38,838 nucleotides of DNA from a virus. Taxonomy: Duplodnaviria; Heunggongvirae; Uroviricota; Caudoviricetes. The position numbers and the translations under genes are program-made. Location of the stretch: the IMG/VR virus record IMGVR_UViG_2531839130_000015; one strand, written 5' to 3'. The notes beneath the pieces were generated by a model, which was not told where the DNA came from, did no database searches, and was given only the letters and a program-made list of their open reading frames with translations. Positions within the stretch are counted from its first letter, which is position 1. The number at the start of each line of letters is the position of its first letter. Of the stretch, positions 1 through 20,841 are shown piece after piece.

Positions 1-1362
1 ATGTTTAAACCGGAACTCCTTTCCCCGGCGGGAACGCTGAAAAATATGCGTTACGCTTTCGCTTATGGCGCAGATGCTGTTTATGCGGGCCAGCCGCGTT
101 ATTCCCTGCGTGTGCGCAACAACGAATTCAACCACGAAAATCTTCAGCTCGGCATCAATGAAGCCCACGCGCTGGGGAAAAAGTTTTATGTCGTGGTCAA
201 CATTGCACCGCACAACGCCAAGCTGAAAACCTTTATCCGTGACCTGAAACCGGTGGTGGAAATGGGGCCGGATGCGCTGATTATGTCCGATCCAGGGCTG
301 ATTATGCTGGTGCGTGAGCACTTCCCTGAAATGCCGATCCACCTTTCGGTGCAGGCTAACGCCGTGAACTGGGCGACGGTGAAATTCTGGCAGCAAATGG
401 GCCTGACCCGCGTGATCCTCTCTCGCGAGCTGTCGCTGGAAGAGATTGAAGAGATCCGCAATCAGGTGCCGGATATGGAGATCGAGATCTTCGTTCACGG
501 CGCGCTGTGCATGGCCTACTCCGGTCGCTGCCTGCTCTCTGGCTATATCAACAAGCGCGACCCGAACCAGGGCACCTGCACCAACGCCTGCCGCTGGGAG
601 TACAACGTCCAGGAAGGGAAAGAAGATGATGTTGGCAACATCGTACACAAGTACGAGCCGATTCCGGTGCAAAATGTTGAGCCGACGCTGGGTATCGGCG
701 CACCAACCGACAAAGTGTTTATGATCGAAGAGGCCCAGCGTCCGGGCGAGTATATGACCGCGTTTGAAGATGAGCACGGCACTTACATCATGAACTCGAA
801 AGATCTGCGCGCCATCGCCCATGTAGAACGCCTGACCAAAATGGGCGTGCATTCGCTGAAAATCGAAGGTCGTACCAAATCTTTCTACTATTGTGCACGC
901 ACCGCACAGGTTTACCGCAAAGCTATCGATGACGCCGCTGCGGGAAAACCGTTCGATACCAGCCTGCTGGAAACTCTGGAAGGTCTGGCGCATCGTGGCT
1001 ATACTGAAGGTTTCCTGCGTCGTCATACTCACGACGATTATCAGAACTACGAATACGGTTATTCAGTTTCTGACCGCCAGCAGTTTGTTGGTGAGTTTAC
1101 CGGTGAGCGCAAGGGGGACCTCGCGGCGGTAGCGGTGAAAAATAAATTCTCCGTTGGCGACAGCCTTGAGCTGATGACGCCGCAAGGCAACATTAATTTT
1201 ACCCTTGAGCACATGGAAAACGCCAAAGGCGAAGCTATGCCGATAGCACCAGGCGATGGTTATACTGTGTGGCTCCCGGTCCCGCAGGATCTTGAGCTCA
1301 ATTACGCGCTGCTGATGCGTAATTTCTCCGGGGAAACCACGCGTAATCCCCACGGTAAGTGA
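1..1362 (+). CDS. yegQ: Peptidase U32-family protein YegQ (RlhA, 23S rRNA hydroxycytidine synthase), 453 aa, host gene
   Basis: Full-length ORF starting MFKPELLSPAGTLKNMRYAFAYGADAVYAGQPRYSL, recalled as E. coli YegQ; typical enterobacterial GC-rich codon usage. Confidence 0.85.
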   Translation: MFKPELLSPAGTLKNMRYAFAYGADAVYAGQPRYSLRVRNNEFNHENLQLGINEAHALGKKFYVVVNIAPHNAKLKTFIRDLKPVVEMGPDALIMSDPGLIMLVREHFPEMPIHLSVQANAVNWATVKFWQQMGLTRVILSRELSLEEIEEIRNQVPDMEIEIFVHGALCMAYSGRCLLSGYINKRDPNQGTCTNACRWEYNVQEGKEDDVGNIVHKYEPIPVQNVEPTLGIGAPTDKVFMIEEAQRPGEYMTAFEDEHGTYIMNSKDLRAIAHVERLTKMGVHSLKIEGRTKSFYYCARTAQVYRKAIDDAAAGKPFDTSLLETLEGLAHRGYTEGFLRRHTHDDYQNYEYGYSVSDRQQFVGEFTGERKGDLAAVAVKNKFSVGDSLELMTPQGNINFTLEHMENAKGEAMPIAPGDGYTVWLPVPQDLELNYALLMRNFSGETTRNPHGK

Positions 1363-1446
1363 TTAATTTCGATTATTTTTCCCGGATGGAAAATTCTTAG
1401 AAACCGATCACATACAGCTGTATTTATTAAGGTTATCATCCGTTTC

Positions 1447-1532
1447 GCTGAAAAACATAACCCATAAAATGCTAGCTGTACCAGGAACCACCTCCTTAGC
1501 CTGTGTAATCTCCCTTACACGGGCTTATTTTT
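1447..1532 (+). ncRNA. cyaR: CyaR (RyeE) sRNA; 3' terminator hairpin overlaps the prophage att core
   Basis: Sequence gctgaaaaacataacccataaaatgctagctgtaccaggaaccacctccttagcctgtgtaatctcccttacacgggcttatttttt matches my recollection of cyaR; position directly downstream of yegQ as in E. coli K-12; ends in a stem (gcctgtgtaa/ttacacgggc) plus T-run. Ends approximate. Confidence 0.7.
1504..1530. other. Prophage attachment site core, cyaR-proximal copy
   Basis: About 27-bp sequence aatctcccttacacgggcttatttttta repeated exactly at about 38337..38363; matches the recalled P2 att core; lies between host cyaR and phage ogr. Confidence 0.8.
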
Positions 1533-3592: not shown

Positions 3593-6040
3593 TTAACCGT
3601 CATGCATCATGCTGGCACGGGCGCGCGCACGTTTATCCCGCTCGTATTTTTCGAGCGCATCCTGTAACTGGCGGTCGAGCTGAGTCCCCGGCGCAGTACC
3701 GCCCGTCAGACTGATGTGATATTCGTTTTTACTCTGGTCCACATAAGAGCGGCCAGCCGGTGCCGTAACCGGCTGATAAGCCTGATAGCCTGCATAAGAG
3801 CTGGTCGCCGGAATATAACCACCGGTGCCATACGTGGCGGCATGAGTCCTTGCGGCGGTCTGGTCAAGTGTGTCTGACTCTTTGTTGATAACACCGAGTT
3901 TTTCCAGTACCCAGTCAATACCACTGCGCAGTTTGTTGAACGCATTAAGCGGCAGCATCAGCACGTCAGCCAGTGCTTGCCCGAACATGACGCCCGTGTC
4001 ACGGCAACGGTTCAGGGTGTCCTGGGTGGCTTTAACCGGGGCAATCAGGTTTTTAAACCACTGCCACGCGGCCTGTAACTTTTCGCCCAGCCAGTCAAAC
4101 ACCGGTTTAAGTGGCGTGAACAGTTCCCCCACCGGCGCAAATGCTGCTTTCAGCCCTTCAACCACACCGCCAAAGAATGCGCTGACAGGCTCCCAGTATT
4201 TACGGATAAGCAACGCCCCGGCGACAATTGCAGCCACCACGGCCACAACCGGCCAGCTAATCGCCCCGATGGCCGTCATAACAGCACTGCCAACCGTCGT
4301 GAAGATTGCCCCCATTGCGCCTGCTGCCGCGATGATGGCATTGATGCCGGTGATAACCGGCCAGGCTACGAGGCCAATTGCACCGATGATGCCAGTCAGC
4401 GCCAGTGCGCCACCGGCAATGATGCCGATGGTTGACGCCAGTGATTTGTTTTTCTGTATCCAGCCGTCGAGTTTTAACACATACTTTGTGGCCGTCTGCG
4501 TGAGCTTACGCAGTGCGCCTTCCTGCTGGTCAAACAGGTCAGTCCCCACTGCCTCATAAGCGGACTGAAACTCTTTAAAGTCACCGCCTAGGTTGTCCTG
4601 CATGATATTTACCAGCTCGGCAGTCTTCCCGTCTGAGGCTTTAAACGCAGCGGTCAGTTTGTCCAGCTTTCCGGTTGAGGCGGCAGTCATCAGCACGGCG
4701 GCGGCTGAGCTGGCCTCCTCCCCGAAAATAGTTTTCATGTATTCAGCCTGCTGGGCAGTACCGAGCCGGTTTTTCTCAAAACTGGCCTGCATTTCTTTCA
4801 GAATGGTAAATATTGGCCGGGTGTTTCCCTTGCTGTCTGAGGTTTTCACTCCAAGCTCTTTGAGTGCATCCCATGCTTTTCCCGTCGGTGCCTGCAGGCG
4901 GCTTAACACGGCACGGCTTCCCGTCCCTGCCATTGAGCCTGTGATTTTTGCATCATGCAGCGCCCCGACCATTGCGGCGGTTTCTTCAATGCTGACACCG
5001 GCATTTTTTGCCACAGGTGCGGCATAGGTCAGCGCATCGCTCATGCCGTCAAAATCGGCGGCGGTTTTGTTCATCGTCATGGAGAGAACATCCCCGATAT
5101 GAGCGACCTTATCGTTTGAAAGCTGAAAGGCGGATTTCATCCCCATCAGCAGGGCGGCGTTTTCTTCCATCGTGCGGCGGTTCGCCAGCGCCATATTCAG
5201 CGTGACCGGCGTTGCCGCCTGAATGGCATCAACATCCCCACCCGCTTTCGCGATGATTATCTGTGCACCGGCCGCATCATCCGCCGAGGCGGCAGTATTG
5301 TCACCGAGCTGGCGCGCCTGCTTGCGGAGTGCGGCCATTTCGGCGGAGTCTTTTGCCACACCTAGCACGGCCTGCAATTCTGAGTTTTTCTGCGCAAACT
5401 CATAACCGGGCATCAGTAGCTTAACACCGGCCATCGTTCCCGCCGCCGCAATCCCCACACCGGCAGCGCCCACCGAGGCCATATTTCCGGCCAGTTCCTT
5501 TCCGGCCTGATAACGCTGTTTGACTGCGTTAAGTTTTGCCTGTTGCGCACTGACACGCGCCAGCGCGTCACGCTGACGGTTAAGCTGTACGGTGGTTTCA
5601 CTGATACGATTTTTCAGTCCCTGCTCATCATGTGCAAGATTGCGGGTATTAATTCCCACAGCGGCCAGTTCCCGCTGCTGGCGTTTAACGGAATCTGTCA
5701 GGCGGTTATATTTCGCCTGTAAGTCCTCCGCCGCACGCTTTGCGGATTCCAGGACTTTCGCCTGAGCACGGGTCGGACGTTCGGTGTTTTTAAACTGTGT
5801 GGCAAGGGCTTCAGCTTCCTGCCGTGCCTTTTCAAGTGCATGACCAGTCACGGCAAGCTGTGCACTGGTCTTGCGAAATCCCTCAATACGGGATGCGTGA
5901 CCGTTCAGCTCGCGCAGTGATTTTTGTGTTTCCCGGATATCCCCCGACAGCGACTTACTCGCTGTGCGGATGGATTTAAACGGGCGGGATGCCTGGTCAA
6001 CAGCCCTGAGCAATACCTGTAATTTTACATTGTTACTCAT
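3593..6040 (-). CDS. T: Tail tape measure protein T (815 aa)
   Basis: Long Ala/Gly-rich coiled-coil protein with central hydrophobic block, size and position as P2 gpT. Confidence 0.9.
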   Translation of the reverse strand: MSNNVKLQVLLRAVDQASRPFKSIRTASKSLSGDIRETQKSLRELNGHASRIEGFRKTSAQLAVTGHALEKARQEAEALATQFKNTERPTRAQAKVLESAKRAAEDLQAKYNRLTDSVKRQQRELAAVGINTRNLAHDEQGLKNRISETTVQLNRQRDALARVSAQQAKLNAVKQRYQAGKELAGNMASVGAAGVGIAAAGTMAGVKLLMPGYEFAQKNSELQAVLGVAKDSAEMAALRKQARQLGDNTAASADDAAGAQIIIAKAGGDVDAIQAATPVTLNMALANRRTMEENAALLMGMKSAFQLSNDKVAHIGDVLSMTMNKTAADFDGMSDALTYAAPVAKNAGVSIEETAAMVGALHDAKITGSMAGTGSRAVLSRLQAPTGKAWDALKELGVKTSDSKGNTRPIFTILKEMQASFEKNRLGTAQQAEYMKTIFGEEASSAAAVLMTAASTGKLDKLTAAFKASDGKTAELVNIMQDNLGGDFKEFQSAYEAVGTDLFDQQEGALRKLTQTATKYVLKLDGWIQKNKSLASTIGIIAGGALALTGIIGAIGLVAWPVITGINAIIAAAGAMGAIFTTVGSAVMTAIGAISWPVVAVVAAIVAGALLIRKYWEPVSAFFGGVVEGLKAAFAPVGELFTPLKPVFDWLGEKLQAAWQWFKNLIAPVKATQDTLNRCRDTGVMFGQALADVLMLPLNAFNKLRSGIDWVLEKLGVINKESDTLDQTAARTHAATYGTGGYIPATSSYAGYQAYQPVTAPAGRSYVDQSKNEYHISLTGGTAPGTQLDRQLQDALEKYERDKRARARASMMHDG

Positions 6041-6460
6041 TCGTGTTTCCGCTTCGCCGGAGCGCCTTTTCGCGCCATGTGATGAGTTCGGTCAGGCTCA
6101 TGGGATACAGTTCTGATGGCGGCCAGTGAAATATCACTGCCACATCCGCCATCAGGTCATCGACCGAGAGATTTTTCGGAAACGTCACTGCACCGAGTTC
6201 GGCGACAAAAAACCGACCACCTTACCGGCCAGCGCCACAAGGTCAGGCAGTTCCAGCGCGGCGACTTCCTGCTCGGTCAGCATCGGTGCCGTCATGCGCG
6301 GCAGCACCTTAATCAGTGCATCGACTTCGGAGTTTGCAACCGCAGCCAGACTGACACCGCGCAGCGTCCCGGCATTGGGTTTTATCAGCGTGACCTGTTC
6401 GATAACCTGCTCACCACGTTTGACCGGATTGTCCAGGGTAATGACATTTTCTTTGTTCAT
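6033..6460 (-). CDS. E+E': E+E' fusion made by programmed -1 translational frameshift at the slippery run GGTTTTTTG (minus strand, about 6203..6211)
   Basis: Codons GGT TTT TTG (G-F-L) near the 3' end of E form a T-run slippery site; the hand-translated -1 frame continues about 57 codons (VAELGAVTFPKNLSVDDLMADVAVIFHWPPSELYPMSLTELITWREKALRRSGNTNE) to a TAA just inside the start of T, giving about 142-145 aa as for P2 E+E'. Confidence 0.7.
6185..6460 (-). CDS. E: Tail assembly chaperone E (91 aa)
   Basis: MNKENVITLDNPVKRGEQVIEQVTLIKPNAGTLRG matches recalled P2 gpE. Confidence 0.9.
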   Translation of the reverse strand: MNKENVITLDNPVKRGEQVIEQVTLIKPNAGTLRGVSLAAVANSEVDALIKVLPRMTAPMLTEQEVAALELPDLVALAGKVVGFLSPNSVQ

Positions 6461-6516
6461 GGTTTTCTCACTTCTGAATCAGGGTTAACCGGTCAGCCTG
6501 GCTGACCGGATGAAAA

Positions 6517-7035
6517 TCACAGGCCGATATTTCGGCGGTGTTGCTCCAGCCGGTCGACGCCGTTCACCTTCTCAATCATGTTAATGGTGTCGATTTCGAC
6601 CAGCTCCTTACCGTCCATCGTCAGCCGGAAATAGGTGCAGACCACGGAGATTTTCGACTCAGTGTCTTCTCCCTGTTTCCCCTCGCCGGTGTCGATTTCT
6701 TTCTGACGTCCACGCATGACCACCTCGACGGCCACCGTTTCGCCGGTATCGTCGCGCTGGTAAGAGCCAGCAAAACGAATCGGTACGGCATCCACACCGG
6801 TTGCGGCGTAAAGCTCCCAGATAACCGAATCCGGGAAGCCACCGAGCGACCACTCCATTGACAGCGCATCGTCATCAAGGCCGAGGTCTACCGGTGCGCT
6901 GCCGTTCATCCCCGCACCGCGATAGTTTTCGAGTTTACGGGTCAGTTTTGGTAGCGTGACGGACTTTGCAACGCCCTGATAGCTGTAGCCGTTCAGAAAG
7001 ACGTTCATTAACTTGAGTTTGCGCGGCATTGCCAT
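6517..7035 (-). CDS. FII: Tail tube protein FII (172 aa)
   Basis: Size and synteny with P2 gpFII. Confidence 0.9.
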   Translation of the reverse strand: MAMPRKLKLMNVFLNGYSYQGVAKSVTLPKLTRKLENYRGAGMNGSAPVDLGLDDDALSMEWSLGGFPDSVIWELYAATGVDAVPIRFAGSYQRDDTGETVAVEVVMRGRQKEIDTGEGKQGEDTESKISVVCTYFRLTMDGKELVEIDTINMIEKVNGVDRLEQHRRNIGL

Positions 7036-7047
7036 CGGTCAGGCTCC

Positions 7048-8238
7048 TTAATTGCTGTTAACCGAGGTGACCAGATTCGCCAGGTATTTATCGGTAATAC
7101 GCTGGCGCAGGGTCAGGTTTTCAAGAGGAGGCACCGGGGTATAGTCGTAGTCGATATACAGTTTTCCGGCCTTGAGGGTTTCCGCATCGTTGGATTCTTC
7201 GCTGAACCAGCATGAGCCATCCACGATATAGCCGTTTGTTTTCAGCTCACGGAATTTGGCATTGATGCCGTCAACGATGTCGCGAATCAGCGTTGCGGTG
7301 ATGGGCTTGTCCACCGCCCACATGTGCGCCTCAGCCATCGTGTCGGCCAGCACCTGCGCGGTGCGTGTGTAGTTTTCAAAGAGAAACAGCGGGTCATCAG
7401 AGCAGGTACGGTTACCCCAGAAGCGGAAACCGTCGCGGCGAATCAGCGTAGTGACGCCTGACTCGTTAAGCAGGTCAGCATCGGTGCCGGACTCCTGCAA
7501 ATCCCAGAATACAGAGGCGCTGATGCCGGTAACACCGTTCACCCCGACGTTGGACAGCGTTTTATGCCAGCCCTGCTCCTGGTCGATTTTAGCGCGCAGA
7601 CCCAGCGCACGGGCGGTGGCATACGCGGTGGCAGTGGTACTGGTGACCGTATCCCATGCGAGGAAATCCGGCCAGATGACCATCAGCTCACGCTGGCTGA
7701 AATTCTGGCGGTAGGCTTTCACCTCGGAAATGGTCTTACAGCCCCATGCGCTGATATATCCGAAAGCGCGCAGCTTCTGACAGACGGATGCCAGTGCAAC
7801 AGCCACCTCTTTGGTGTCCAGCCCCGGCACACCGAGAATACGCGGTTTAACACCGGTTACCGACTCCGCCGCCAGCAGGGCTTTCAGTCCGGTGTACTGA
7901 CCGTTTTCGTCGGTGGTTCCGATGATATTGGAAACAGTCTGCGCGAGTTTCGTTTCTTCGTCTTCGCCGGTGCCGTCTTCCACACGCACGACAACGGTGA
8001 CCGGTTTTGACTGGTCGGCGATGGCCTGCAACGATGCCGCCAGCGTGCCTTTTTTACCGGCCTTTGCAATTGCGCTCTGCACATTGGTAATCAGCACCGG
8101 TTTATTGAGGGGGAAGGTTTCCGCATCCGCATCGCTGGCTGTGCAGACCATGCCGACAATGGCGGTGGATACGGTGGAAATGACGCGGGTGCCGTCGTTA
8201 ATCTCCAGCACCTGCACGCCGTGATGATAGTCACTCAT
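7048..8238 (-). CDS. FI: Contractile tail sheath protein FI (396 aa)
   Basis: Size and synteny with P2 gpFI; MSDYHHGVQVLEINDGTRVIS start. Confidence 0.9.
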   Translation of the reverse strand: MSDYHHGVQVLEINDGTRVISTVSTAIVGMVCTASDADAETFPLNKPVLITNVQSAIAKAGKKGTLAASLQAIADQSKPVTVVVRVEDGTGEDEETKLAQTVSNIIGTTDENGQYTGLKALLAAESVTGVKPRILGVPGLDTKEVAVALASVCQKLRAFGYISAWGCKTISEVKAYRQNFSQRELMVIWPDFLAWDTVTSTTATAYATARALGLRAKIDQEQGWHKTLSNVGVNGVTGISASVFWDLQESGTDADLLNESGVTTLIRRDGFRFWGNRTCSDDPLFLFENYTRTAQVLADTMAEAHMWAVDKPITATLIRDIVDGINAKFRELKTNGYIVDGSCWFSEESNDAETLKAGKLYIDYDYTPVPPLENLTLRQRITDKYLANLVTSVNSN

Positions 8239-8327
8239 CCGTTTAACTCCGTGGTTAATGGGTGCAACTATTTTCTGTTGGGCAGAGCATGAGACGCTAT
8301 TTGACCTGGCTGGTCAGTGGATGAAAC

Positions 8328-8361
8328 AACAGATAAAGAAAAGGCGGGCAATTCGCCCGCC
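8328..8361 (-). terminator. Intrinsic terminator on the minus strand upstream of FI, separating the cargo locus from the FI operon
   Basis: Minus strand reads GGCGGGCGAATTGCCCGCC followed by TTTTCTTTAT; the late promoter for the FI operon should lie in the about 90 bp between this hairpin and the FI start (not resolved). Confidence 0.55.
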
Positions 8362-8661
8362 TGTCCTGATTTGTACTCACTCATTTTCCGCCTGACAATT
8401 TACATAGCCCAAATGCTATCAAATCTGACAGTCTGCTTTGAGCGAGAAACGGACGTTATAGATAGTGTGTTAAGGTTTTCTCTTTAATTGCAATGTCATA
8501 TCCTCAACGACCAAGTAGTGACATTTTTCGTTATTATATGGTATTGTGTTAGAATTAATTTATTGATGCGAAATCATTCAAAGCTTCATTGGTACTTATA
8601 TTTAACTTATAATCTTAATTAAAGAATTTCTTATTTTTAGATATTTTTATGCAAATACTTA

Positions 8662-9414
8662 ATGAAAGGAGGCATAAATTTGGATACTAACAGTCCATTA
8701 ATTGAAGTCGAGCAGAACACTTCAGACATATATATTCCGTTGCAAGCCTGGTTCGAGGGGAGAAAATTCCTTTCACACAGATTTTCGGGCCAAAACTGTA
8801 GTGATAATCCATCAAGTGATTGGGAGGCTTGGTTATCAATACAGGAATGCTGTCCTCTCCATCAGGTCAATAGTCTTAACTGGGTCGGACTGCATGAAGC
8901 CAGGAAAAATACAGATTCATTCTTGGGGAATGTGAAGAGTGAATTTAATGGAAAGCTTCCCATTTTTATTCATGAAAAGGAGAGGGTGATAATCGAAAAA
9001 AAAATCGGCATTCCTCCCAAACCCTCATTACCAATCTATTTAATATCATGCTCTGATATGGATGATACCAATGAACACATTGTTTATGTCGGAAAAACCG
9101 TTAACTCCAAAAGGTTTATTGGCGGTCACTCGGCTGCCTTAAAGTTGCTAGATCCCAAATATAATAATATGAAAAAGAGGATATATAGAGCCACCCCATG
9201 GTTTTATGATGGAAAAGACTATATTTCACTGGATTGGATTAGTCCGACATCATTAGCTATAGAATTACTTGACTTTATAGAGTCTCATCTTATTTACAAT
9301 CTCAAGCCGGAACTCAACACATCGAAGAAAAAAAATGAAGATACACGTTATTCTTTTTATCTTCACATTCAGAACTTTTTATCAACAGGCTTTCTTAATG
9401 ATGAGTTTATTTAA
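8662..9414 (+). CDS. AT-rich cargo protein with a C-terminal GIY-YIG nuclease-like domain and an unknown N-terminal domain (about 244-250 aa)
   Basis: PIYLISCSDMDDTNEHIVYVGKTVNSKRFIGGH fits the GIY...YVG(K/S)(A/T)...R...H pattern of I-TevI/UvrC-type domains, with a downstream IESHLIYN...N segment consistent with the catalytic Glu/Asn. Strong AAGGAGG Shine-Dalgarno at about 8666..8672 suggests the real start may be TTG at about 8680 rather than ATG at 8662. Occupies the P2 Z/fun position. Confidence 0.6.
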   Translation: MKGGINLDTNSPLIEVEQNTSDIYIPLQAWFEGRKFLSHRFSGQNCSDNPSSDWEAWLSIQECCPLHQVNSLNWVGLHEARKNTDSFLGNVKSEFNGKLPIFIHEKERVIIEKKIGIPPKPSLPIYLISCSDMDDTNEHIVYVGKTVNSKRFIGGHSAALKLLDPKYNNMKKRIYRATPWFYDGKDYISLDWISPTSLAIELLDFIESHLIYNLKPELNTSKKKNEDTRYSFYLHIQNFLSTGFLNDEFI

Positions 9415-9440
9415 TATCATTACTTATTAACATAGTAGAG

Positions 9441-9464
9441 ATTAAACTACGTCCGCTCCTGGCA
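9441..9464. repeat. Palindromic hairpin GTCCGCT-N10-AGCGGAC, copy 1 of a three-member family
   Basis: Read directly from sequence: gtccgctcctggcaagcagcggac. Confidence 0.6.
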
Positions 9465-9484
9465 AGCAGCGGACATTGCTGGCT

Positions 9485-9506
9485 GAGTTGAGGGTCCGCT
9501 GTGAGC
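9485..9506. repeat. Palindromic hairpin TCCGCT-N10-AGCGGA, copy 2
   Basis: Read directly from sequence: tccgctgtgagcgaggagcgga, 20 nt after copy 1. Confidence 0.6.
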
Positions 9507-9789
9507 GAGGAGCGGAAGTTCAAAATTTTTCATAACGACTGATGAGAACAACACTAATTTTCGAACTTACTGGTACAAAAAATTTCCATAATCTTATAAA
9601 AAGTGGGGGAGTCAGTATGGTTCAATATTTGAAATACTACTTGTTTATGTTGAGAAAATTTTAAGCTTGACCTGGTTACCAGATTACAGCCGATCAACAC
9701 CTAGACATCGAAACTTAGAGGTACCTCTGCTTTCAGGCATACTTAGAGGTCTATGTCTAAACCACCCGCTATGCAGGTGGTTGATTTAC

Positions 9790-11325
9790 CTAATTCGGCC
9801 TTGCTTGAATAGCAGACTCTATAGCTGCTCGGAATTCCGGGGCATCAGTTCTTAATCGATAATCATCAAGGGTATTGAATATTTCTAGAAGTTCTCTACG
9901 ATAATGCAGCGGTGCTGAATTACCTTCGCCTCTAGTGGTGAAAATTAATAATGAGTCAGCGACGTCTTTTAATTTTTTATTCCTTTTCAACCTAATATAA
10001 CAAGATACAACTATATCAAGAATATGCTTTCTAGATTTCAAGGTGAGTTTATTATTAGGCATAACCAACTGCAGCATAGCACCAAGTAATTTGGTAGCCT
10101 CTTTTGAAATATAATGAAGATCGAAATTATCTATTTCTTTATTTTCTTGAGGAATCTCCTTTTCATCTATCCATTCGCATTGTTCTGCCCAATCTGTAGC
10201 GACGCTAAATAAATGACAGAGAAGGAAGTGAAAAGGTGTTTCCCATTCACCACTATATTCATCTGATTGCCTATTCATATTCTTTATAATTTTCCTTGCG
10301 AAATATGAATAGTAATGCAACCATAAATGATCCTGAAGACCCTGGTGAATACCTTCATGAACCATAATTTCAAACAGCGTGACACCTGAGTAAATAGGAC
10401 ATTTATATTTTGAAGCATCGTAATAGGAACCTAAAGACTTATTAAGTGCAGCAATAATTTTTTCATCTTCATCTAACCTCCAGTAGAGATAGTCACCGAT
10501 ATCACGGTATATTGCTAAATCAGCTGCAAACTTAGCATTGGAAAAGAAAAAATGTAATATACGGTTGTTTTTTGGAATCAATAAACGATGTCCTCGACTA
10601 ACGTTAAGATTATTTTTAAGCTCAACATATAGACGACTGTTAGGTGAACCAAGTAATGCACTGATAAAATTAGAAGTAAAGTCAGAACGAACTATTGGCT
10701 CGATCTTGATTAACTCAAGGCAGAGGGATGGGTGCGCAAGTGCAAAGTGATTGGTAAGTTCAGGTGATGAGACAATATTTAACAATGCTTCATGTGCATG
10801 TTCAGCAGCTGTCTCGCGATTAGAGATGCGGAGATTGTTAGCTATCTTATCACAAAGTCGATTCTTCACAGGTCTATCAATTATTGATATTAATTTTTCT
10901 AGTTGAGGTGCCAACAATTGTGCCAGATCGTCGTATCGTTTAGTAAGGTGCAAATTTTCCACTAACTCTAGAAATATCCCTGTTCTTCCAATTGAGAGTT
11001 TAGGGTTTTTTAAGCGAAATGAAATGTAAATAGCAACTGCGAGTGATATCAGGTATACGGCACTTGAACTATCTAATCCCCATTTCCAGGGGCCAAAGCT
11101 AAAATATAAGTCTAGTGATTTTAAAGCCGGTGCAAACACCAAATAATTGCTTAGTAAGAATGCAAACCCAACAATTACCCAATCCCACCACGCTAGGCAG
11201 AACCTTAAACGTAGTCGAGCGTTTGGCGTAATAAGGGCCCATACAGCAGCAATAACGCCCAATATGGTAAGTAGACTTGATGTATCAATTTTGGTTGGCG
11301 GTGTCATAATTTCTCTTGTAATCAT
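9790..11325 (-). CDS. AT-rich cargo membrane protein (511 aa): about three N-terminal TM helices plus a large soluble domain with an HExxHxxxxxH motif; function unknown
   Basis: Hydrophobic segments LLTILGVIAAVWALI, WVIVGFAFLLSNYLVFAPAL, AVYLISLAVAIYISF; motif VHEGIHQGLQDH resembles zinc-metallopeptidase HExxH/metzincin spacing; no P2 backbone gene of this kind recalled; convergent with the upstream GIY-YIG gene. Confidence 0.6.
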   Translation of the reverse strand: MITREIMTPPTKIDTSSLLTILGVIAAVWALITPNARLRLRFCLAWWDWVIVGFAFLLSNYLVFAPALKSLDLYFSFGPWKWGLDSSSAVYLISLAVAIYISFRLKNPKLSIGRTGIFLELVENLHLTKRYDDLAQLLAPQLEKLISIIDRPVKNRLCDKIANNLRISNRETAAEHAHEALLNIVSSPELTNHFALAHPSLCLELIKIEPIVRSDFTSNFISALLGSPNSRLYVELKNNLNVSRGHRLLIPKNNRILHFFFSNAKFAADLAIYRDIGDYLYWRLDEDEKIIAALNKSLGSYYDASKYKCPIYSGVTLFEIMVHEGIHQGLQDHLWLHYYSYFARKIIKNMNRQSDEYSGEWETPFHFLLCHLFSVATDWAEQCEWIDEKEIPQENKEIDNFDLHYISKEATKLLGAMLQLVMPNNKLTLKSRKHILDIVVSCYIRLKRNKKLKDVADSLLIFTTRGEGNSAPLHYRRELLEIFNTLDDYRLRTDAPEFRAAIESAIQARPN

Positions 11326-11596
11326 TGTTTGATGTACATCGGAATGGTTTCAAATGATAAGGCTCTGTGTATGATAAATCAGAACGTTATGCACGTTTAA
11401 GAATACCCTCAAAATGGCACATTTTAATCTAAAAATGGCATTAAATGGACACTACTTGTCCACACAAGTTTTTTTCAGTCGGCTTTTCCCGACTAACGTT
11501 TGGGGTGTCCTATTGAAACTACGCTCCTTATAAAAGCAATACTGTAGCTGTATGTTTATCAAAGGGGTTGTGCTAACCAAATTACTGAAGCCTAAG

Positions 11597-11620
11597 GTCC
11601 GCTCTTGGCACAGAGCGGAC
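11597..11620. repeat. Palindromic hairpin GTCCGCTCT-N6-AGAGCGGAC, copy 3
   Basis: gtccgctcttggcacagagcggac between the cargo membrane gene and tail gene G; shares the GTCCGCT/AGCGGAC stem with copies 1 and 2. Confidence 0.6.
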
Positions 11621-11681
11621 TGTCAGATCAGGCTTTACTCTGTGCCATAGATATGTAAGCTCACACCAGAGCTCATACAAC

Positions 11682-12209
11682 TTATTGTGGCATTTTCGGC
11701 CATTCGGGATTTGCAGGATCCACACGGCTGACCAGAACACTGTAGCGTTCCCATGCTTCCAGTCGGCTATGCTCCTCATCTGTTGCCATGTTCAGCCTGA
11801 CAGCGCGCTCCAGTGGCTGAATAACGCTTTCCGCTTCGGAAAGTAACGCGGCCTTTTGTGATTCTGTCTGTTGTTGCTGTTCGTCTGCCGTATAAATCCG
11901 CTTAATCACGGCACCATCCTTAAACATCCATTTACCTGAGTCATCAGCACGTCGGTTGGCGGTAATATCAGGAACCTCGACAACGCTAAAACCTTCAGGG
12001 TTAAGCGTTGAAGCATCTCTGGTGATGCCGACAATTATATTATTCTCGTCGTAAACAATCTTTATCGTGTCTTCCTGAAAATTACTTACTTCCTCATACC
12101 AGTTTTTTCCGTCTTCGGACCATAACCAGATAACATCAAAATTTTTTGTCAGTTGATATTGAGCAACAGTTTTTGGATTACCCGCAGTAATATTTTTTAA
12201 ATGCTGCAT
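11682..12209 (-). CDS. G: Tail fibre assembly chaperone G (175 aa)
   Basis: MQHLKNI...[29 protein letters not shown] matches recalled P2 gpG. Confidence 0.9.
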
Positions 12210-12212
12210 AAA

Positions 12213-14435
12213 TTACACCTGTGCGACGTTATACCATGTGCCATTGATGTATTTTTGTATCGGTCTGAATACTGCGGGGTCATCACCATCGACTTCACCG
12301 ACAATACCAAGCCCTGTAATTACGTGCCCTGCTTTCTCATACATAACCCCTTTCTGCATAGTCTGAACAACACGAGTGCCCAGGCGAATATCCCGGACAT
12401 AGCGAGAATCTGATTCAGCTTTGGTGTATGCACCAACATCTCCCGCTGATGGTTTTCGTGTTGTGGTATAGAAATCAGACCAGCCAGATTCAAAACCATA
12501 ACCATCACGGGCTGACCTGTAAGATATACCGCCATTTTTATAATTCACACGAAACTGTACAGCCGGGCAGCTACCAGCATTTATATTAAAGTGAAGAATT
12601 AATGCAGATGCTCCCCCAATCAGAGCGTTGTATGCGCCACTGTCCCAATTCCATCCAACGGCTGTATCACCATTAACCGTATTACCTGTCTGCCGAAGTG
12701 CAAATGCACCGACATTTCTGGCATTAAGGGTAATATCTCCAGAACCATCAAAGGCAACACCTGCTATTTTCCTCGGTGTTTCGAGTTTTGAGGCTGTTGC
12801 AGCATTTCCTGAAAGGCTGGAAATAAATGGATGTGAACAGTAATAACCACGTCCATTTTTAAAATCCAGAATAGCCTGTACGTTCGTGCTTTCTGTAGCG
12901 GGATTAGTTGCCCCCCACTTATATGTCGTCTGACCGACGACATAATCCTCTGTCGGAACAATAACCGTTAGCCCTTCCTCTGCAAGAATTTGTACTGGGA
13001 AAGCTCTGGCTTCAACATAAAAAACACTACATACATCATCATCTTTCAGGCTTGTAACAATGGAATGGATTGAACGCTCATTAGTCTGATACGTCCAGAA
13101 ATAACCTGCCGCATATGAACCACGATCGGTCCAGCCTCCGGGCATAACCATGCCATTAAACTCGCAGTTATTCATTACATAATCGCCGTTATAACAACCA
13201 GTTGAAATAACGACGCGGGATGCCATTTCTCCTGAAAGGCTGGCAGCACGGCGAAAGATAACGGGATACCACTTCCCGGCAACGACATTTGCAGGGGCTG
13301 CAAACGAATACTTTCGCATTCCCTTTTTCTTATCCACTTCACCTTTGCTGTAAACATTAATGTTACTCAGGAAGCGTCCTTTATCAGGAATATCCGCACC
13401 GTTCTGATCTTTCTGAAGACGTTTTTCAGCATTGTCATAGGCAGACTTCACCGCTTTTGGTGTTGCAGCCAGCGTTTCAGAATCACTGTTGGTGGCGCTA
13501 CTGAGCTGGACAAGACCTTTTCGCGCTGTGGTGGCATCCTGTGCAGTGTATTTCCCGTTAGCAAGGTCATACGCTGTCTTAACCGCCTTTGGCGTTGCCG
13601 CAAGCGTTTCAGAATCGCTGTTGGTGGCGCTACTGAGCTGGACAAGGCCTTTTCGCGCGGTGGTGGCGTCCTGTGCAGTGTATTTCCCGTTAGCAAGGTC
13701 ATATGCTGCTTTTACCGCTTTTGGTGTTGCGGCGAGCGTTTCAGACGTGCTGTTGGTGGCACTACTGAGCTGGACAAGGCCTTTTCGCGCTGTGGTGGCG
13801 TCCTGTGCAGTGTATTTCCCGTTAGCAAGGTCATATGCTGCTTTTACCGCTTTTGGTGTTGCGGCGAGTGTTTCAGACGTGCTGTTGGTCGCACTGCTTA
13901 ACTGAGTAAAACCTTTGGCGGTCAGCGAGGCGTCCGGGTGACGTCGTGACTGTTCATGTTCTGCAATTTTGTCATCAACGTAATCCTGCGTTGCCATCAC
14001 CGTTGTGGTGTCAATGGTCAGCGCCACTGAGGCCACACTGCTGACGATGATGACCATGCGGCAGGTCTGCGAACGCCCTGAGCCTTCGGCAAGAGCTGGC
14101 TTATAACTTTCAGCCATGTTCGCCACGGCAATTAACGTTCCAGCATCATCGTACAGGCCAAGCTCACGCATCCAGAAACCGCCCACCTCCGGCGGAATAA
14201 CCAGCTCTGCGATAATATAATTACTGTTTCGTTTGTCCTGGCTGATTTTGTTCAGCGCATGTCGCCAGACTTCGTGGATAAGCCCGGTCTGTCCGGCATC
14301 CGGGACAGGCAATTTACCACCGCCATCCCCGACGGCCATCGTGGTAATGTTGACCTTCCGCCCTCCCGGCGCGGTTGCCGCTGCCAGCTTTGCTGCACCA
14401 GCAGTGGTGATAACGGTTCTGAATTTTGTGCTCAT
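12213..14435 (-). CDS. H: Tail fibre protein H (740 aa) with internal tandem repeats and an AT-rich distal receptor-binding region
   Basis: N-terminus P2 gpH-like; four tandem copies of an about 40-aa unit (…LSSATNSTSETLAATPKAVKAAYDLANGKYTAQDATTARKGLVQ…); product longer than recalled P2 gpH (about 669 aa). Confidence 0.85.
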   Translation of the reverse strand: MSTKFRTVITTAGAAKLAAATAPGGRKVNITTMAVGDGGGKLPVPDAGQTGLIHEVWRHALNKISQDKRNSNYIIAELVIPPEVGGFWMRELGLYDDAGTLIAVANMAESYKPALAEGSGRSQTCRMVIIVSSVASVALTIDTTTVMATQDYVDDKIAEHEQSRRHPDASLTAKGFTQLSSATNSTSETLAATPKAVKAAYDLANGKYTAQDATTARKGLVQLSSATNSTSETLAATPKAVKAAYDLANGKYTAQDATTARKGLVQLSSATNSDSETLAATPKAVKTAYDLANGKYTAQDATTARKGLVQLSSATNSDSETLAATPKAVKSAYDNAEKRLQKDQNGADIPDKGRFLSNINVYSKGEVDKKKGMRKYSFAAPANVVAGKWYPVIFRRAASLSGEMASRVVISTGCYNGDYVMNNCEFNGMVMPGGWTDRGSYAAGYFWTYQTNERSIHSIVTSLKDDDVCSVFYVEARAFPVQILAEEGLTVIVPTEDYVVGQTTYKWGATNPATESTNVQAILDFKNGRGYYCSHPFISSLSGNAATASKLETPRKIAGVAFDGSGDITLNARNVGAFALRQTGNTVNGDTAVGWNWDSGAYNALIGGASALILHFNINAGSCPAVQFRVNYKNGGISYRSARDGYGFESGWSDFYTTTRKPSAGDVGAYTKAESDSRYVRDIRLGTRVVQTMQKGVMYEKAGHVITGLGIVGEVDGDDPAVFRPIQKYINGTWYNVAQV
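13430..13925. repeat. Four tandem about 120-bp coding repeats inside tail fibre gene H
   Basis: Near-identical repeated DNA blocks seen directly (e.g. tggtggcgctactgagctggacaag... recurring); corresponds to the repeated peptide unit in H. Confidence 0.8.
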
Positions 14436-16944: not shown

Positions 16945-17688
16945 ATGGATAAATATCAAATCTGGGAAAATCAAAAAGACACCATCGCCCACCAAGAGTA
17001 TTTAAAAATCTCCGACACCAATTTACTTGGACATATGCATATTGCCAATTACGAAGTTGTCCAACATGAATTAAGCAAATTCAACTCCCCTGACATTGTT
17101 TCCCGTCATTCATTTAACAGAGACAAATTTAAAAAAGAACATTTAAACATATCAAGACACCTTTTCAATTATATATCTTCAGCATTATCATTTAGAGATT
17201 CAACGCGCAACCTACTTAAAACAAAAGCATTAAATATTGCCGACATTAAAATCAAATCAGAGGCATTCATCAATCATGAATTCCGAAATAATCCAGTAAT
17301 AAAATTAATGGAGGATTTAAGAAACATCCTGACGCATCAAAACATGATCGCCCCATCAATATCATCATTCATGCACCTCCAAAGAAATATAAACATGCAC
17401 GGCTTTTCATTTAAGATTGAAAGAATCTTAAACAATGACAGAACCACCAAACAAACAAAAGAATATTTAATCTCACTAAAGCAAAAAAACTTATTCATTT
17501 TACCGATAATAGAAGAATACCAATACACGACTCTTAAGTATCAACACTGGCTTTTAGCAAGTATCTACACTGTTCATCAAGATACTTACCAAGAATACTG
17601 GAATGCGAGAAAAAACATCATGAACGAATGGGGAGGAGACACTCAGCTAATACCTAAAGAGAGTGAGCTCACTTATTTAACCAGATAA
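16945..17688 (+). CDS. AT-rich cargo protein (247 aa), unknown function, with an R-N-x3-H (HEPN-like) motif
   Basis: Clean ORF with AAGGAA Shine-Dalgarno; inserted between V and S and divergent from V; motif LRNILTHQN; no confident family assignment. Confidence 0.55.
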   Translation: MDKYQIWENQKDTIAHQEYLKISDTNLLGHMHIANYEVVQHELSKFNSPDIVSRHSFNRDKFKKEHLNISRHLFNYISSALSFRDSTRNLLKTKALNIADIKIKSEAFINHEFRNNPVIKLMEDLRNILTHQNMIAPSISSFMHLQRNINMHGFSFKIERILNNDRTTKQTKEYLISLKQKNLFILPIIEEYQYTTLKYQHWLLASIYTVHQDTYQEYWNARKNIMNEWGGDTQLIPKESELTYLTR

Positions 17689-18538: not shown

Positions 18539-19288
18539 TCACTGATCTCCTTCGGTCAACGGAGATTGTATTTTCCGCATTGATTCTCCTTTAAGTTCGA
18601 TCTTGATACTGCCATGAACCAGTCGATCTAGGATGGCATCCGCATGTGTGGAGTCTCCGATCATTTTGTACCAGTTTTCCACCGGCAACTGGCTCACTAC
18701 GATGATTGAGCCTCGTTGGTACATCAGATCCACTATTTCCAGCAGGTCGCTACGCTGTTCTGATGAGAGAGGTTCCAGCCCCCAGTCATCCAGAAGCAGC
18801 AGATCGCTATTATTCAGCCTGGTCAAAAGTTTGCTGTATCTTCCATCAGCATGCCCCTGATAGCACTGTTCCATCAGCGCTTTAAGGCGATAATAGTAGA
18901 CCTTGTATCCCTGTCGGCAGGCATTATGACCAAGTGCACATGCCAGGAACGTTTTACCGCTGCCGGTGGCCCCGGTCAGTAAAATATTTTGTTTCAGGGT
19001 TAACCAGTTTCCCTGACTGAGTGAACGGATGAGGGCCCTGTCCAGCCCTCTATTGTTACGATAATCCAGCTTTGATAACTCAGCATTAAGTCTGAACCGT
19101 GCATGTTTGATCAGACGCTCTGCCTTCCTGTTTTCACGGCAGGTTAGTTCTTCTGCTGTCAGTAATGACAGGCGTTCTTCGAAGCCCAGCTCCTGGTATG
19201 TGCCCGGTTGAGCAAGTTGCTTTTTAAGCGCATCACGGAAGCCGGTGAGTTTAAGTGCGGTCAGTTGTTCGTAAAGATGATTCATCAT
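18539..19288 (-). CDS. istB: IS21-family helper ATPase IstB (249 aa)
   Basis: Walker A LLTGATGSGKT and Walker B LLLLDDWG, DnaC-like AAA+ architecture typical of IstB. Confidence 0.85.
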   Translation of the reverse strand: MMNHLYEQLTALKLTGFRDALKKQLAQPGTYQELGFEERLSLLTAEELTCRENRKAERLIKHARFRLNAELSKLDYRNNRGLDRALIRSLSQGNWLTLKQNILLTGATGSGKTFLACALGHNACRQGYKVYYYRLKALMEQCYQGHADGRYSKLLTRLNNSDLLLLDDWGLEPLSSEQRSDLLEIVDLMYQRGSIIVVSQLPVENWYKMIGDSTHADAILDRLVHGSIKIELKGESMRKIQSPLTEGDQ

Positions 19289-19299
19289 TGGATCCCGTA

Positions 19300-20841
19300 T
19301 CAGTGGTAATACTCACTGCCGCGTACGTTTTCGTGTTCCATCGTGGATAACAGATCTGGTTTTGGATCCTGAACAGGTTGTTTATCCAGACCTTTTTCCA
19401 GGATCGATTTAATACCTGACAGACGCCATACCTTTGTTTTCAGAGCTCTTGCACATGCTGCATTAAGTCTGGCTTTACTGTATTTTTTATGAAGGTTCAG
19501 GAGTCCAAGGCAGAAGCGATAGCTTTGTTCCGGATGTGGACGAGAGTTCAGTATATGAAGCACATAACTATGAGTTTCACTGCCTATGTGCCCCGCCCAT
19601 TCCAGAAGACGCTCTGGCGTCCAGGTGGCATGCTGTCGATGAGCTTCAGGCATGTGCTCGTTGCGGGTACTGTAGCCATAAGTACGCTTGCGCGGGTGCA
19701 CAGCAACCTCCTGCCCCTGATTGAAGAGTCTTACCAGTTCTCCGGAGATCCATGCTTCCAGTTGCTGGCCTAACAGCGAACATGGAACCGAGTAGTAATG
19801 TTTGTCGATTTCCACGTGGTAATCGGCATGAACTCTGACTTTCTTCACCAGGGTGTAACTGTAACTGGCTTCAGGAAGAGGCTTCAGTGCGGGTTTATCA
19901 AGCTGGATGAAGAGTTCTGCACGTGAATAACCCAACTTCTGCATTATTTTGTTATTCAGTCTTTCCAGCAACTCCCGAATGCGCTGATTAAGCGATGCAA
20001 GGCTGTAGAAGATCTCATGCCTGATTCGGGCCATGATCCAGCGTTCAACAACCTGAACGCCAACTTCAGCTTTGGCTTTATCTTTCGGTTTACGTGGCCG
20101 CGCAGGCAAAACTGCGACATTATAATGCTCAAGCATCTGCTGGTAGGTAGGGTTAACGTCAGGATCATACTTACATGCCCTGGATGTGGCGCTTTTCAGA
20201 TTGTCCGGAACAACAAGTTCAGGAACGCCACCCAACCACTGGAAGCAGCGAACATGACTCATCACCCAGTCTTCAGGCTGCTGAGACCAGGTGGCCTCTG
20301 CCCATGTGTAACTTGATGCCCCGAGAACAGCTACGATGACCTGAGCAGTTCTTATTTCTCCGGTCTCAGGGTCGGTAACGCCAACGGTAGGTCCACAGTA
20401 ATCAACGAAAAGTTTTTCGCCAGCTTTATGTACCTGACGCATTGATGGTGAAGTGGTTTTGAGCCATTCACGGTACATCCGGCAGTAATGGTTATAGCTG
20501 TAAAAACCGCCTGGATTACGCTCACAGTATTCTTCCCAGAGTAGCTGCAGCGTCACGCATTTATTACGCAGTTCCCGGTGTACTGTAGCCCAGTCAGGCA
20601 GAGAGTGCTTCTTCATCTTAACCTGGGTCTGAAGGAACGCATGTTTTAGTTTTGTATCATCCCATCCTGTAGGTAAGGGCCACTGCTTTATGCCAAGTTG
20701 AGCCGCCCGATTAGCATATCTGGATACAACGGAAGGGGAGATTGCAAGACTACGACCAATTTGTCGATGGCTGAGTCCAACACCGTATTTAAGCCTAAGA
20801 ATTTCTTTAAGTTTTCTCATAGAAATTGGAACTGTTGGCAT
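19300..20841 (-). CDS. istA: IS21-family transposase IstA (513 aa)
   Basis: N-terminal HTH plus integrase-like core, directly upstream of istB in the same orientation; family recognised by recall, specific IS name not assigned. Confidence 0.8.
   Translation of the reverse strand: MPTVPISMRKLKEILRLKYGVGLSHRQIGRSLAISPSVVSRYANRAAQLGIKQWPLPTGWDDTKLKHAFLQTQVKMKKHSLPDWATVHRELRNKCVTLQLLWEEYCERNPGGFYSYNHYCRMYREWLKTTSPSMRQVHKAGEKLFVDYCGPTVGVTDPETGEIRTAQVIVAVLGASSYTWAEATWSQQPEDWVMSHVRCFQWLGGVPELVVPDNLKSATSRACKYDPDVNPTYQQMLEHYNVAVLPARPRKPKDKAKAEVGVQVVERWIMARIRHEIFYSLASLNQRIRELLERLNNKIMQKLGYSRAELFIQLDKPALKPLPEASYSYTLVKKVRVHADYHVEIDKHYYSVPCSLLGQQLEAWISGELVRLFNQGQEVAVHPRKRTYGYSTRNEHMPEAHRQHATWTPERLLEWAGHIGSETHSYVLHILNSRPHPEQSYRFCLGLLNLHKKYSKARLNAACARALKTKVWRLSGIKSILEKGLDKQPVQDPKPDLLSTMEHENVRGSEYYH

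Follow-up and report, generated by a model that had tools for sequence, protein, structure and literature searches.

Palindrome-bounded gene cassettes, candidate anti-phage cargo, in the Z/fun slot between the tail genes FI and G of a P2-like prophage

Which genes fill the variable slot between the tail sheath gene FI and the tail-fibre assembly gene G of a P2-like prophage, and how do they get there? The question is raised by positions 8,239 to 11,681 of IMG/VR record IMGVR_UViG_2531839130_000015, a viral sequence of 38,838 nucleotides (nt) that is referred to here, at its full length, as the window. In this interval a 3.4-kb AT-rich insert separates FI (7048-8238, minus strand, matching tail-sheath Pfam families and a PHROG) from G (11682-12209, minus strand, matching Pfam Caudo_TAP and a PHROG). 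Its GC content is 0.33-0.40 across about 8400-11400, compared with 0.53-0.60 in FI and the tail genes. The insert lies in the Z/fun slot of P2; the reference P2 genome carries fun(Z) between G and FI, with the same types of site around it. The two longest open reading frames (ORFs), of 250 amino acids on the plus strand (8662-9414, ORF A) and 511 amino acids on the minus strand (9790-11325, ORF B), are convergent. An earlier note, made from the letters of the DNA, had already described an AT-rich insert at the Z/fun position with two convergent genes, and the GC profile, the Pfam matches of both flanks, the place of fun(Z) in reference P2 and the ORF coordinates all agree with it. The four 24-bp palindromes, which it missed, form the true limits of the modules, and the interval as a whole is an array of two cassettes.

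The palindromes have the form GTCCGCT-N10-AGCGGAC and start at 8431, 9451, 9494 and 11597, a count that was reached in none of 100 shuffles. Each consists of two inverted 7-bp arms around a 10-bp centre, and the centres come in two distinct and nearly invariant flavours: the A-type, with TGAGCGA, on the FI side and the B-type, with TGGCAC, on the G side. The interval therefore reads as A-type site, ORF A, B-type site, 19 nt, A-type site, ORF B and B-type site. The outer A-type site (8431..8454, plus strand, GTCTGCT-TTGAGCGAGA-AACGGAC) is the left boundary of the ORF A cassette, and the outer B-type site (11597..11620, plus strand, GTCCGCT-CTTGGCACAG-AGCGGAC) the right boundary of the ORF B cassette. 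Between the cassettes lies a junction element (9451..9517, plus strand), composed of a B-type site (9451-9474), a 19-nt spacer and an A-type site (9494-9517). Conservation of this B+A junction extends over about 67 nt and includes the spacer. Each cassette holds one self-contained gene with its own upstream region.

Alignments at three boundaries locate the points at which homology changes partner. At the left end, the window is identical to the P2 backbone as far as GTCTGCTTTGAGCGAG and, from GAGCGAGAAACGGACGTTATAG / GAGCGAGAAACGGAC onward, to the ORF A cassette of a non-P2 island (L024). In the middle, it matches L024, on the ORF A side, to GTCCGCTGTGAGCGA, and the islands of NDM6 and NCTC9022, on the ORF B side, from TGAGCGAGGAGCGGAAGTTCAAAA. 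At the right end, four contexts share an unchanged ORF B cassette up to and including GGTCCGCTCTTGGCACA, and from GAGCGGACTGTCAGAT the window is the same as a P2 phage that carries other cargo. The three alignments agree, which places the crossovers within the palindrome centres. Modular swapping of the interval, which the earlier note had proposed to test by comparative alignment, fits these switches in homology at the palindromes.

The distribution of the two genes was surveyed in 5426 complete Escherichia coli genomes. The whole island is present in six of them, always in this P2 position, while the conserved P2 flanks occur in 1139. ORF A was found in only six genomes and never without ORF B, whereas the ORF B cassette occurs in 81, of which 75 lack ORF A. 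At 99% DNA identity, the ORF B cassette (window 9493-11627) also stands in non-P2 islands without ORF A, where homology stops at the palindromes and the neighbours are IS66, IS100 and inovirus-Gp2-type genes. That the two genes are independent modules and not one operon, as was first proposed from their convergence, is strongly supported by this distribution and by the palindromic boundaries; convergence alone is the weaker basis. Both products were also held to be novel relative to the P2 backbone. They are absent from reference P2, but they already form PHROG families of unknown function and are listed in RefSeq as hypothetical proteins.

The same sites delimit cassettes in many other genomes. 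L024, which carries a P4-like integrase of 561 amino acids, consists of an A site, ORF A, a B+A junction, a DUF6615 gene, a second junction, ORF B (99% identical), a third junction and the next gene, with seven sites where 0.2 are expected. Its ORF B cassette (4287-6997, corresponding to 9494-11620 in the window) is about 580 nt longer and contains an additional ORF of 100 amino acids (4492-4794) downstream of ORF B, a region that in the window holds only a 40-amino-acid ORF (9542-9664). An exact 33-base B+A junction pattern was found at 23 places in about 12 genera of the Enterobacterales, often several times per locus, 0.7-3.5 kb apart and in a single orientation. Junction-like sequences are present in 716 of the surveyed E. 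coli genomes, one to three per genome and always intergenic. Paired sites split cassettes in integrase-bounded islands of many Enterobacterales, and two E. coli islands that are otherwise nearly identical (L050 and L051) are distinguished by exactly one cassette, located after a junction.

Within P2 itself, fun(Z) of the reference genome is flanked by a B site immediately behind G and by a degenerate A site ahead of the FI promoter, and the Z-region records of P2-EC30 and P2-EC53 (GenBank AJ512676 and AJ512682; Nilsson et al. 2004) annotate 'left/right inverted repeats' at these positions. The hotspot of the satellite P4 was considered as a further locus sharing the A and B sites and was rejected, as NC_001609 contains none. 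The integrases found beside arrays are either P4-like (55% identical to P4 Int) or a 200-amino-acid protein (WP_161620211) that comprises only the catalytic domain of a tyrosine recombinase (PF00589). The latter is encoded in CP4-like islands of E. coli (L050 4857-5459, L051 4857-5459 and L053 9982-10584) and, in L050 and L051, lies in a dynamin-family cassette. It is a candidate to act on the A and B sites, with no general link to them.

ORF A most likely starts at TTG 8680, because a perfect AAGGAGG is located at 8666-8672 and RefSeq and the homologues begin there; the longest ORF would start at ATG 8662. The resulting protein of 244 amino acids (8680..9414, plus strand) combines a GIY-YIG nuclease domain with an N-terminal domain of about 115 residues. 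A promoter-like site at 8518..8547 (plus strand), with GTGACA, an 18-nt spacing, TATTGT and a TG extended -10, was assigned by consensus match only. Residues Y126, Y142/G144, R151, E207 and N219 are invariant in 29 homologues with identities down to 27%, and the best fold matches are T4 EndoII, R.Eco29kI and UvrC. The Pfam families PF01541 and PF20815 score below their gathering thresholds (14.9 and 13.1 bits versus cut-offs of 22.6 and 22.4), and a precomputed PF20815 match exists for a few homologues. On its invariant motif residues and modelled fold, ORF A is confirmed as a real GIY-YIG nuclease. The initial naming of a GIY-YIG gene is thereby upheld, with a Pfam match that stays under threshold and a start that moves to TTG 8680. 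For the N-terminal domain, a sequence search of solved structures gave only a weak DUF1778/RHH hint (E 0.08). No PADLOC-DB v2.0.0 family matches ORF A at E <= 1, and NCBIfam returned nothing useful.

Homologues of ORF A that occur without ORF B are present in a Proteus prophage, beside SIR2 and STAND genes, in the cargo of an Acinetobacter Tn7-like transposon, beside DUF3800 or Shedu, and in Pseudomonas and Dickeya contexts. Their settings span chromosomes, Tn7-like elements and plasmids, and the distribution is not restricted to phages. The protein would be a catalytically intact endonuclease that cuts invading phage DNA of a kind the host lacks, for instance modified DNA, as with type IV enzymes and PD-T4-3, or that is active only when triggered; such a specificity or trigger is most likely because no partner methyltransferase accompanies the gene. 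PD-T4-3 (PDB 9u75, deposited as a 5-hydroxymethylcytosine-specific restriction endonuclease) is, like ORF A, a single E. coli GIY-YIG protein of about 245 amino acids without a methyltransferase partner and is a plausible functional analogue, although its PADLOC model does not match ORF A. T4 endonuclease II (DenA) and R.Eco29kI are 14-22% identical to ORF A and differ from it by lacking the additional N-terminal domain of about 115 residues; R.Eco29kI moreover has a cognate methyltransferase, whereas ORF A has none.

ORF B (9790..11307, minus strand; longest ORF to 11325) most likely begins at ATG 11307, corresponding to Met7 of the longest ORF, and thus encodes 505 amino acids. This start agrees with RefSeq, the phrog profile and nearly all homologues, and it is favoured further because the -10 of a promoter-like site at 11324..11353 (minus strand; TTGAAA, 18 nt, AACAAT) overlaps the upstream ATG. 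Three N-terminal hydrophobic helices (13-36, 40-68 and 87-105, each with a Kyte-Doolittle value > 1.6) are also helical in the predicted structure. The loop 32-46 contains three arginines and no acidic residue, and lysine and arginine residues follow the third transmembrane (TM) helix; from this charge distribution, an N-out, C-in topology is predicted. The putative periplasmic loop FGPWKWGLDSS is highly conserved. Only the first 106 residues or so are membrane-embedded, and the remaining 400 or so form, in the predicted structure (predicted local distance difference test score 84), an all-helical solenoid on the cytoplasmic side. The view of the product as a 511-residue membrane protein is therefore right as to the ORF and its place in the membrane, but it overlooks the soluble helical repeats after residue 106 or thereabouts, and the likely length is 505.

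The only structural neighbours of the solenoid are generic HEAT/ARM or designed repeat proteins, with no enzyme fold among them. Nothing significant emerged from a BFVD fold search, a sequence search of solved structures returned only noise, and ORF B has no match in Pfam, NCBIfam or PADLOC (PADLOC-DB v2.0.0, no family at E <= 1). A conserved block, HEGIHQGLQDH, includes the invariant residues H327, D332 and H333. An assignment as an HExxH zinc metalloprotease was rejected, as H323 and E324 vary and no protease fold was found. Homology to Fun(Z) was likewise rejected (BLASTP against NP_046777, best E 0.57).

The ORF B family is widespread in Proteobacteria, with a typical length of about 533 amino acids. 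Homologues without ORF A are found beside an AbiC-like gene in Yersinia, beside a Lamassu system in Delftia and in an integrase island of P. aeruginosa. They also occur in about 115 non-mobilizable Klebsiella plasmids of about 110 kb, typed as IncFIB in two records, that are related to records deposited as Klebsiella phages. In Yersinia enterocolitica (L018 5308-8709), a homologue of 50% identity lies downstream of a co-oriented AbiC-like gene (PF16872) within a single cassette bounded by the sites, which indicates that some family members may act with a partner, even though the copy in the window is solo. In NCTC9022 (L003 5310-6826) and others, ORF B is split into ORFs of 996 and 528 nt, annotated as two hypothetical proteins, which suggests frameshift inactivation in part of the population. 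ORF B would act at the inner membrane as a superinfection-exclusion or abortive-infection factor. It resembles P22 SieA, T4 Imm, lambda RexB and AbiC-type proteins as a prophage-borne, constitutively expressible single protein with an N-terminal membrane anchor. No relation to them in sequence or fold was detected, and ORF B is much larger and has a cytoplasmic α-solenoid of about 400 residues.

What kind of cargo do these cassettes carry? Of ten proteins from neighbouring cassettes that were tested, eight match PADLOC models, namely PD-T7-5, Drt1b (with a reverse transcriptase), PDC-S71, PDC-S06, a TmtA/Mko-like (Mokosh-like) helicase, an HNH effector, PD_DExK (PD-(D/E)xK) and AbiC. The ORF A and ORF B cassettes are thus probably anti-phage genes that are moved by cassette exchange, a role assigned to them by genomic association only. 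The fun locus was reported as the second defence-enriched locus of P2 (Vassallo et al. 2022, PMC9519451), and a 2026 preprint describes hotspots within P2's late genes (bioRxiv 10.64898/2026.02.27.708500). This survey of P2 and P4 hotspots regards the recombination behind the swapping of defence genes as still to be elucidated, and it contains no mention of hairpins or inverted repeats (bioRxiv 10.64898/2026.02.27.708500). Neither the accession of either protein nor the palindrome motif occurs in the searchable literature. The hotspot is therefore already published, and the most interesting part of the present locus is the conserved two-flavour palindromic boundaries, which tie the P2 slot to arrays throughout the Enterobacterales.

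The palindromes would be core sites for recombination of double-stranded DNA, in which two inverted 7-bp arms enclose a crossover region of about 10 bp. A sites would recombine with A sites and B sites with B sites, so that cassettes lacking mobility genes themselves could be gained, lost or exchanged between replicons. As the A and B centres differ, A-A and B-B exchange would not collapse the cassettes. Comparable systems are the attC cassettes of integrons, the pdif modules of Acinetobacter and the engineered exchange between heterospecific lox or FRT sites, in which short, conserved, imperfect palindromes likewise bound discrete single-function cassettes; the likeness extends to tandem arrays, recurrence in different replicons and richness in defence genes. 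The A/B arrays differ from integrons and pdif modules in lacking IntI- or Xer-type site sequences and in having two sites of different flavour per cassette instead of one attC. They differ from integrons also in that the genes lie in both orientations with their own promoters and the crossovers fall in the palindrome centres, not in a GTT core. A test for an integron found no IntI integrase with attI in the window.

Inverted 7-bp arms, 10-bp centres of two conserved flavours and a switch of homology within the centres at three boundaries would be expected of double-strand core sites, possibly of the tyrosine-recombinase type, whose partner sites would share an identical centre. We consider it rather probable that the interval is a two-cassette array in which the palindromes serve as recombination core sites and each cargo gene is an anti-phage gene in its own right that the lysogen expresses. 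A bolder version is offered only tentatively: the A/B palindromes would be heterospecific core sites of an undescribed, recombinase-driven system of double-stranded cassette exchange, with two sites per cassette and no linked integrase, that shuttles defence genes between the P2 tail-gene hotspot and integrase islands of the Enterobacterales, and ORF A and ORF B would represent two novel anti-phage systems of one gene each, drawn from this pool. Several observations, on the sites as well as on the cargo, count against the main reading. No recombinase is consistently linked to the arrays among the loci examined. The 200-amino-acid tyrosine recombinase was not supported as the general enzyme, since it is confined to a dynamin cassette at three loci, and neither was the notion that arrays always abut a P4-like integrase, which was seen at only two loci. 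Some arrays have lone B sites for which no A partner was detected, and the breakpoints were mapped from a handful of contexts, with a resolution limited by the conserved sequence of the sites. Neither local hairpins nor long-range B:A pairing show covariation above shuffles, and there are no compensatory changes in the arms; the sites are therefore taken as conserved in sequence and no RNA or single-stranded DNA (ssDNA) structure is claimed. This lack of arm covariation fits a protein-recognised sequence without proving it. Ordinary homologous or short-homology recombination in a conserved junction of about 70 nt would, moreover, yield similar breakpoints. It is possible, though doubtful, that the palindromes are REP-like (repetitive extragenic palindromic) or terminator-like repeats and that exchange proceeds by such recombination (Red/RecET-type) on the junction or by an integron-like single-strand mechanism. 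Conservation over about 67 nt, spacer included, suffices for phage recombinases, and the junction, if present as ssDNA, would form a single long but imperfect hairpin (-22.7 kcal/mol, z -4.9), with AAC/AAT...GTT at the hairpin base of many junctions, which recalls attC; on these two features, attC-like and short-homology routes stay rivals. They sit poorly with breakpoints that lie, at three boundaries, inside the 24-bp sites and not in the spacer or at the GTT expected for attC, with two flavours of distinct and nearly invariant centres, and with the fixed orientation of sites within arrays. REP elements are further disfavoured by the one to three copies per E. coli genome, and the integron-like variant by the missing integron integrase and by genes in both orientations with their own promoters.

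On the cargo side, a defence role is argued from neighbourhood alone, and neither ORF A nor ORF B matches any PADLOC v2 model; the PADLOC check foreseen for both genes was run and came out negative for either protein. The two could instead be lysogenic-conversion 'morons' outside defence, with ORF B, for example, acting in the envelope or in stress and ORF A as a nuclease in DNA repair or regulation. P2 hotspots also hold non-defence cargo such as partition systems and a cytolethal distending toxin (PMC9122126), and ORF B lies beside phoH and grxA genes in Klebsiella plasmids. This alternative is nevertheless unlikely, given that the pool of cassettes bounded by A/B sites is dominated by recognised defence genes, that homologues neighbour AbiC, Lamassu, Shedu and SIR2-STAND genes and that the P2 locus is a reported defence hotspot. 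A nuclease without evident self-protection could also be selfish: ORF A would then be a GIY-YIG endonuclease of the free-standing homing type, cleaving P2 genomes without it and spreading through repair, with no benefit to the host. The GIY-YIG fold is shared by I-TevI and T4 EndoII, the gene occupies an intergenic slot between conserved phage genes, a methyltransferase partner is missing, and the extra domain, with its weak RHH/DUF1778 hint, could bind DNA. Homing is nonetheless improbable, because ORF A is bounded by the same A/B sites as non-nuclease cassettes and is rare among P2-like prophages (six genomes compared with 1139 with conserved flanks), because its homologues occur in chromosomal, Tn7-like and plasmid settings near defence genes and not in phage core regions, and because it lacks the C-terminal DNA-binding modules typical of Tev and Seg enzymes, its domain order being reversed and without a Pfam match. 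Least credible is a single, mutually dependent two-gene system, such as a membrane sensor or anchor (ORF B) with a nuclease effector (ORF A). Sensor-plus-effector pairs are common in defence, ORF A is always accompanied by ORF B in complete E. coli genomes and both share the array of L024; yet another cassette sits between them there, the genes converge and are split by a pair of sites where the homology shared with other contexts ends, and 75 of the 81 E. coli carriers of ORF B have no ORF A. Beyond E. coli, Proteus, Acinetobacter, Pseudomonas and Dickeya harbour ORF A homologues without an ORF B neighbour, and Yersinia, Delftia, Pseudomonas and Klebsiella plasmids ORF B homologues without an ORF A neighbour. 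On this distribution, the one-operon or two-gene-system reading was rejected.

How the array is set into the transcription of the late genes was also considered. A hairpin with a T tract, resembling an intrinsic terminator, lies at 8332..8362 (minus strand), directly upstream of the FI (pF) promoter region; it has a 9-bp stem with seven G-C pairs and a 3-nt loop (8362..8342), followed by the tail TTTTCTTTATC / TTTTCTTT. Transcripts that read through from G and the cargo would end there, ahead of the Ogr-dependent FI promoter. The terminator that the earlier note had seen as insulating the FI operon is thus present, and insulation is a reasonable function, but it is part of the conserved P2 backbone and no feature of the insert itself: reference P2 has the same terminator just upstream of the annotated pF activator-binding site (17555-17583). 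ORF B runs in the same direction as G and FI, and the prediction placed no terminator between it and G, so that late read-through into ORF B is likely, as judged from the sequence. Just downstream of the ORF B stop, a weak hairpin with a 5-bp stem on the plus strand (9766..9780) is a possible weak terminator between the convergent genes. The Z/fun locus of reference P2 shares with the window the slot, the flanking A/B site types, the backbone terminator with the pF region and a variable AT-rich cargo. The window differs in that its cargo is unrelated to Fun(Z) and in having two cassettes with an internal B+A junction instead of one; ORF B has the direction of the late tail operons, to which fun(Z) is antisense, and in reference P2 an annotated V-operon terminator lies inside the cargo.

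Upstream of ORF B, at a distance of about 140 nt, stands another palindrome, TGGACA-CTACT-TGTCCA (11446-11462). A similar 16-nt motif (CAAGTAGTGACATTTT, 8512-8527) is located about 150 nt upstream of ORF A in the same gene-relative orientation, where it overlaps the -35 of that gene. The pair could be a shared operator or a chance match; several repeats of similar length exist in the AT-rich DNA.

Some features outside the array were recorded as well. An Rfam covariance-model search found no family in 8239-11681 or in L024 at E <= 1. The sole Rfam match in the window is the gene for the small RNA CyaR/RyeE (1445-1530, plus strand, 100.7 bits, E 5e-19), just downstream of a host gene for a U32 peptidase (yegQ-like, 1-1362, plus strand). 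Host chromosome thus makes up the left end of the window, and the prophage resides at the cyaR-proximal P2 attachment region. An insertion sequence of the IS21 family lies inside the late region (18539-20841, minus strand) and encodes an IstA-like transposase of 513 amino acids (rve and Mu-transposase C domains) and an IstB-like ATPase of 249 amino acids (PF01695, E 2e-67); probably it disrupts the block of tail-completion or lysis genes, and it may render the prophage defective. At the main P2 hotspot, between the portal gene Q and the replication gene A (old/tin position), an ORF of 440 amino acids (29991-31313, minus strand) is an uncharacterised cargo candidate, with no Pfam or PADLOC match and no flanking A/B palindromes. 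A further ORF of 247 amino acids (16945-17688, plus strand), antisense to the late genes at the P2 orf30 position between S and V, has no Pfam or PADLOC match. Tandem protein repeats that are almost identical (LAATPKAVKAAYDLANGKYTAQDATTARKGLVQLSSATNS...) occur in the tail-fibre gene H (12213-14435), with a strong AT skew around 13400-13900, as seen in the ORF translation and the composition profile.

The island offers two compact, uncharacterised and widely distributed single-gene defence candidates whose catalytic or conserved residues are clear targets for mutation. One is a GIY-YIG nuclease that has a new accessory domain, the other an α-solenoid protein with three TM helices that is common in P2 prophages, genomic islands and non-mobilizable, phage-like Klebsiella plasmids. 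The A/B sites could help to find new defence cassettes, as a simple flag in the sequence, and they make the mechanism of defence swapping directly testable, both as to which protein acts there and as to whether it is independent of RecA. If the cassette-exchange model is true, the rapid exchange of defence loci, which recent surveys leave without an explanation, would gain its mechanism in the A/B system, integron-like in its outcome.

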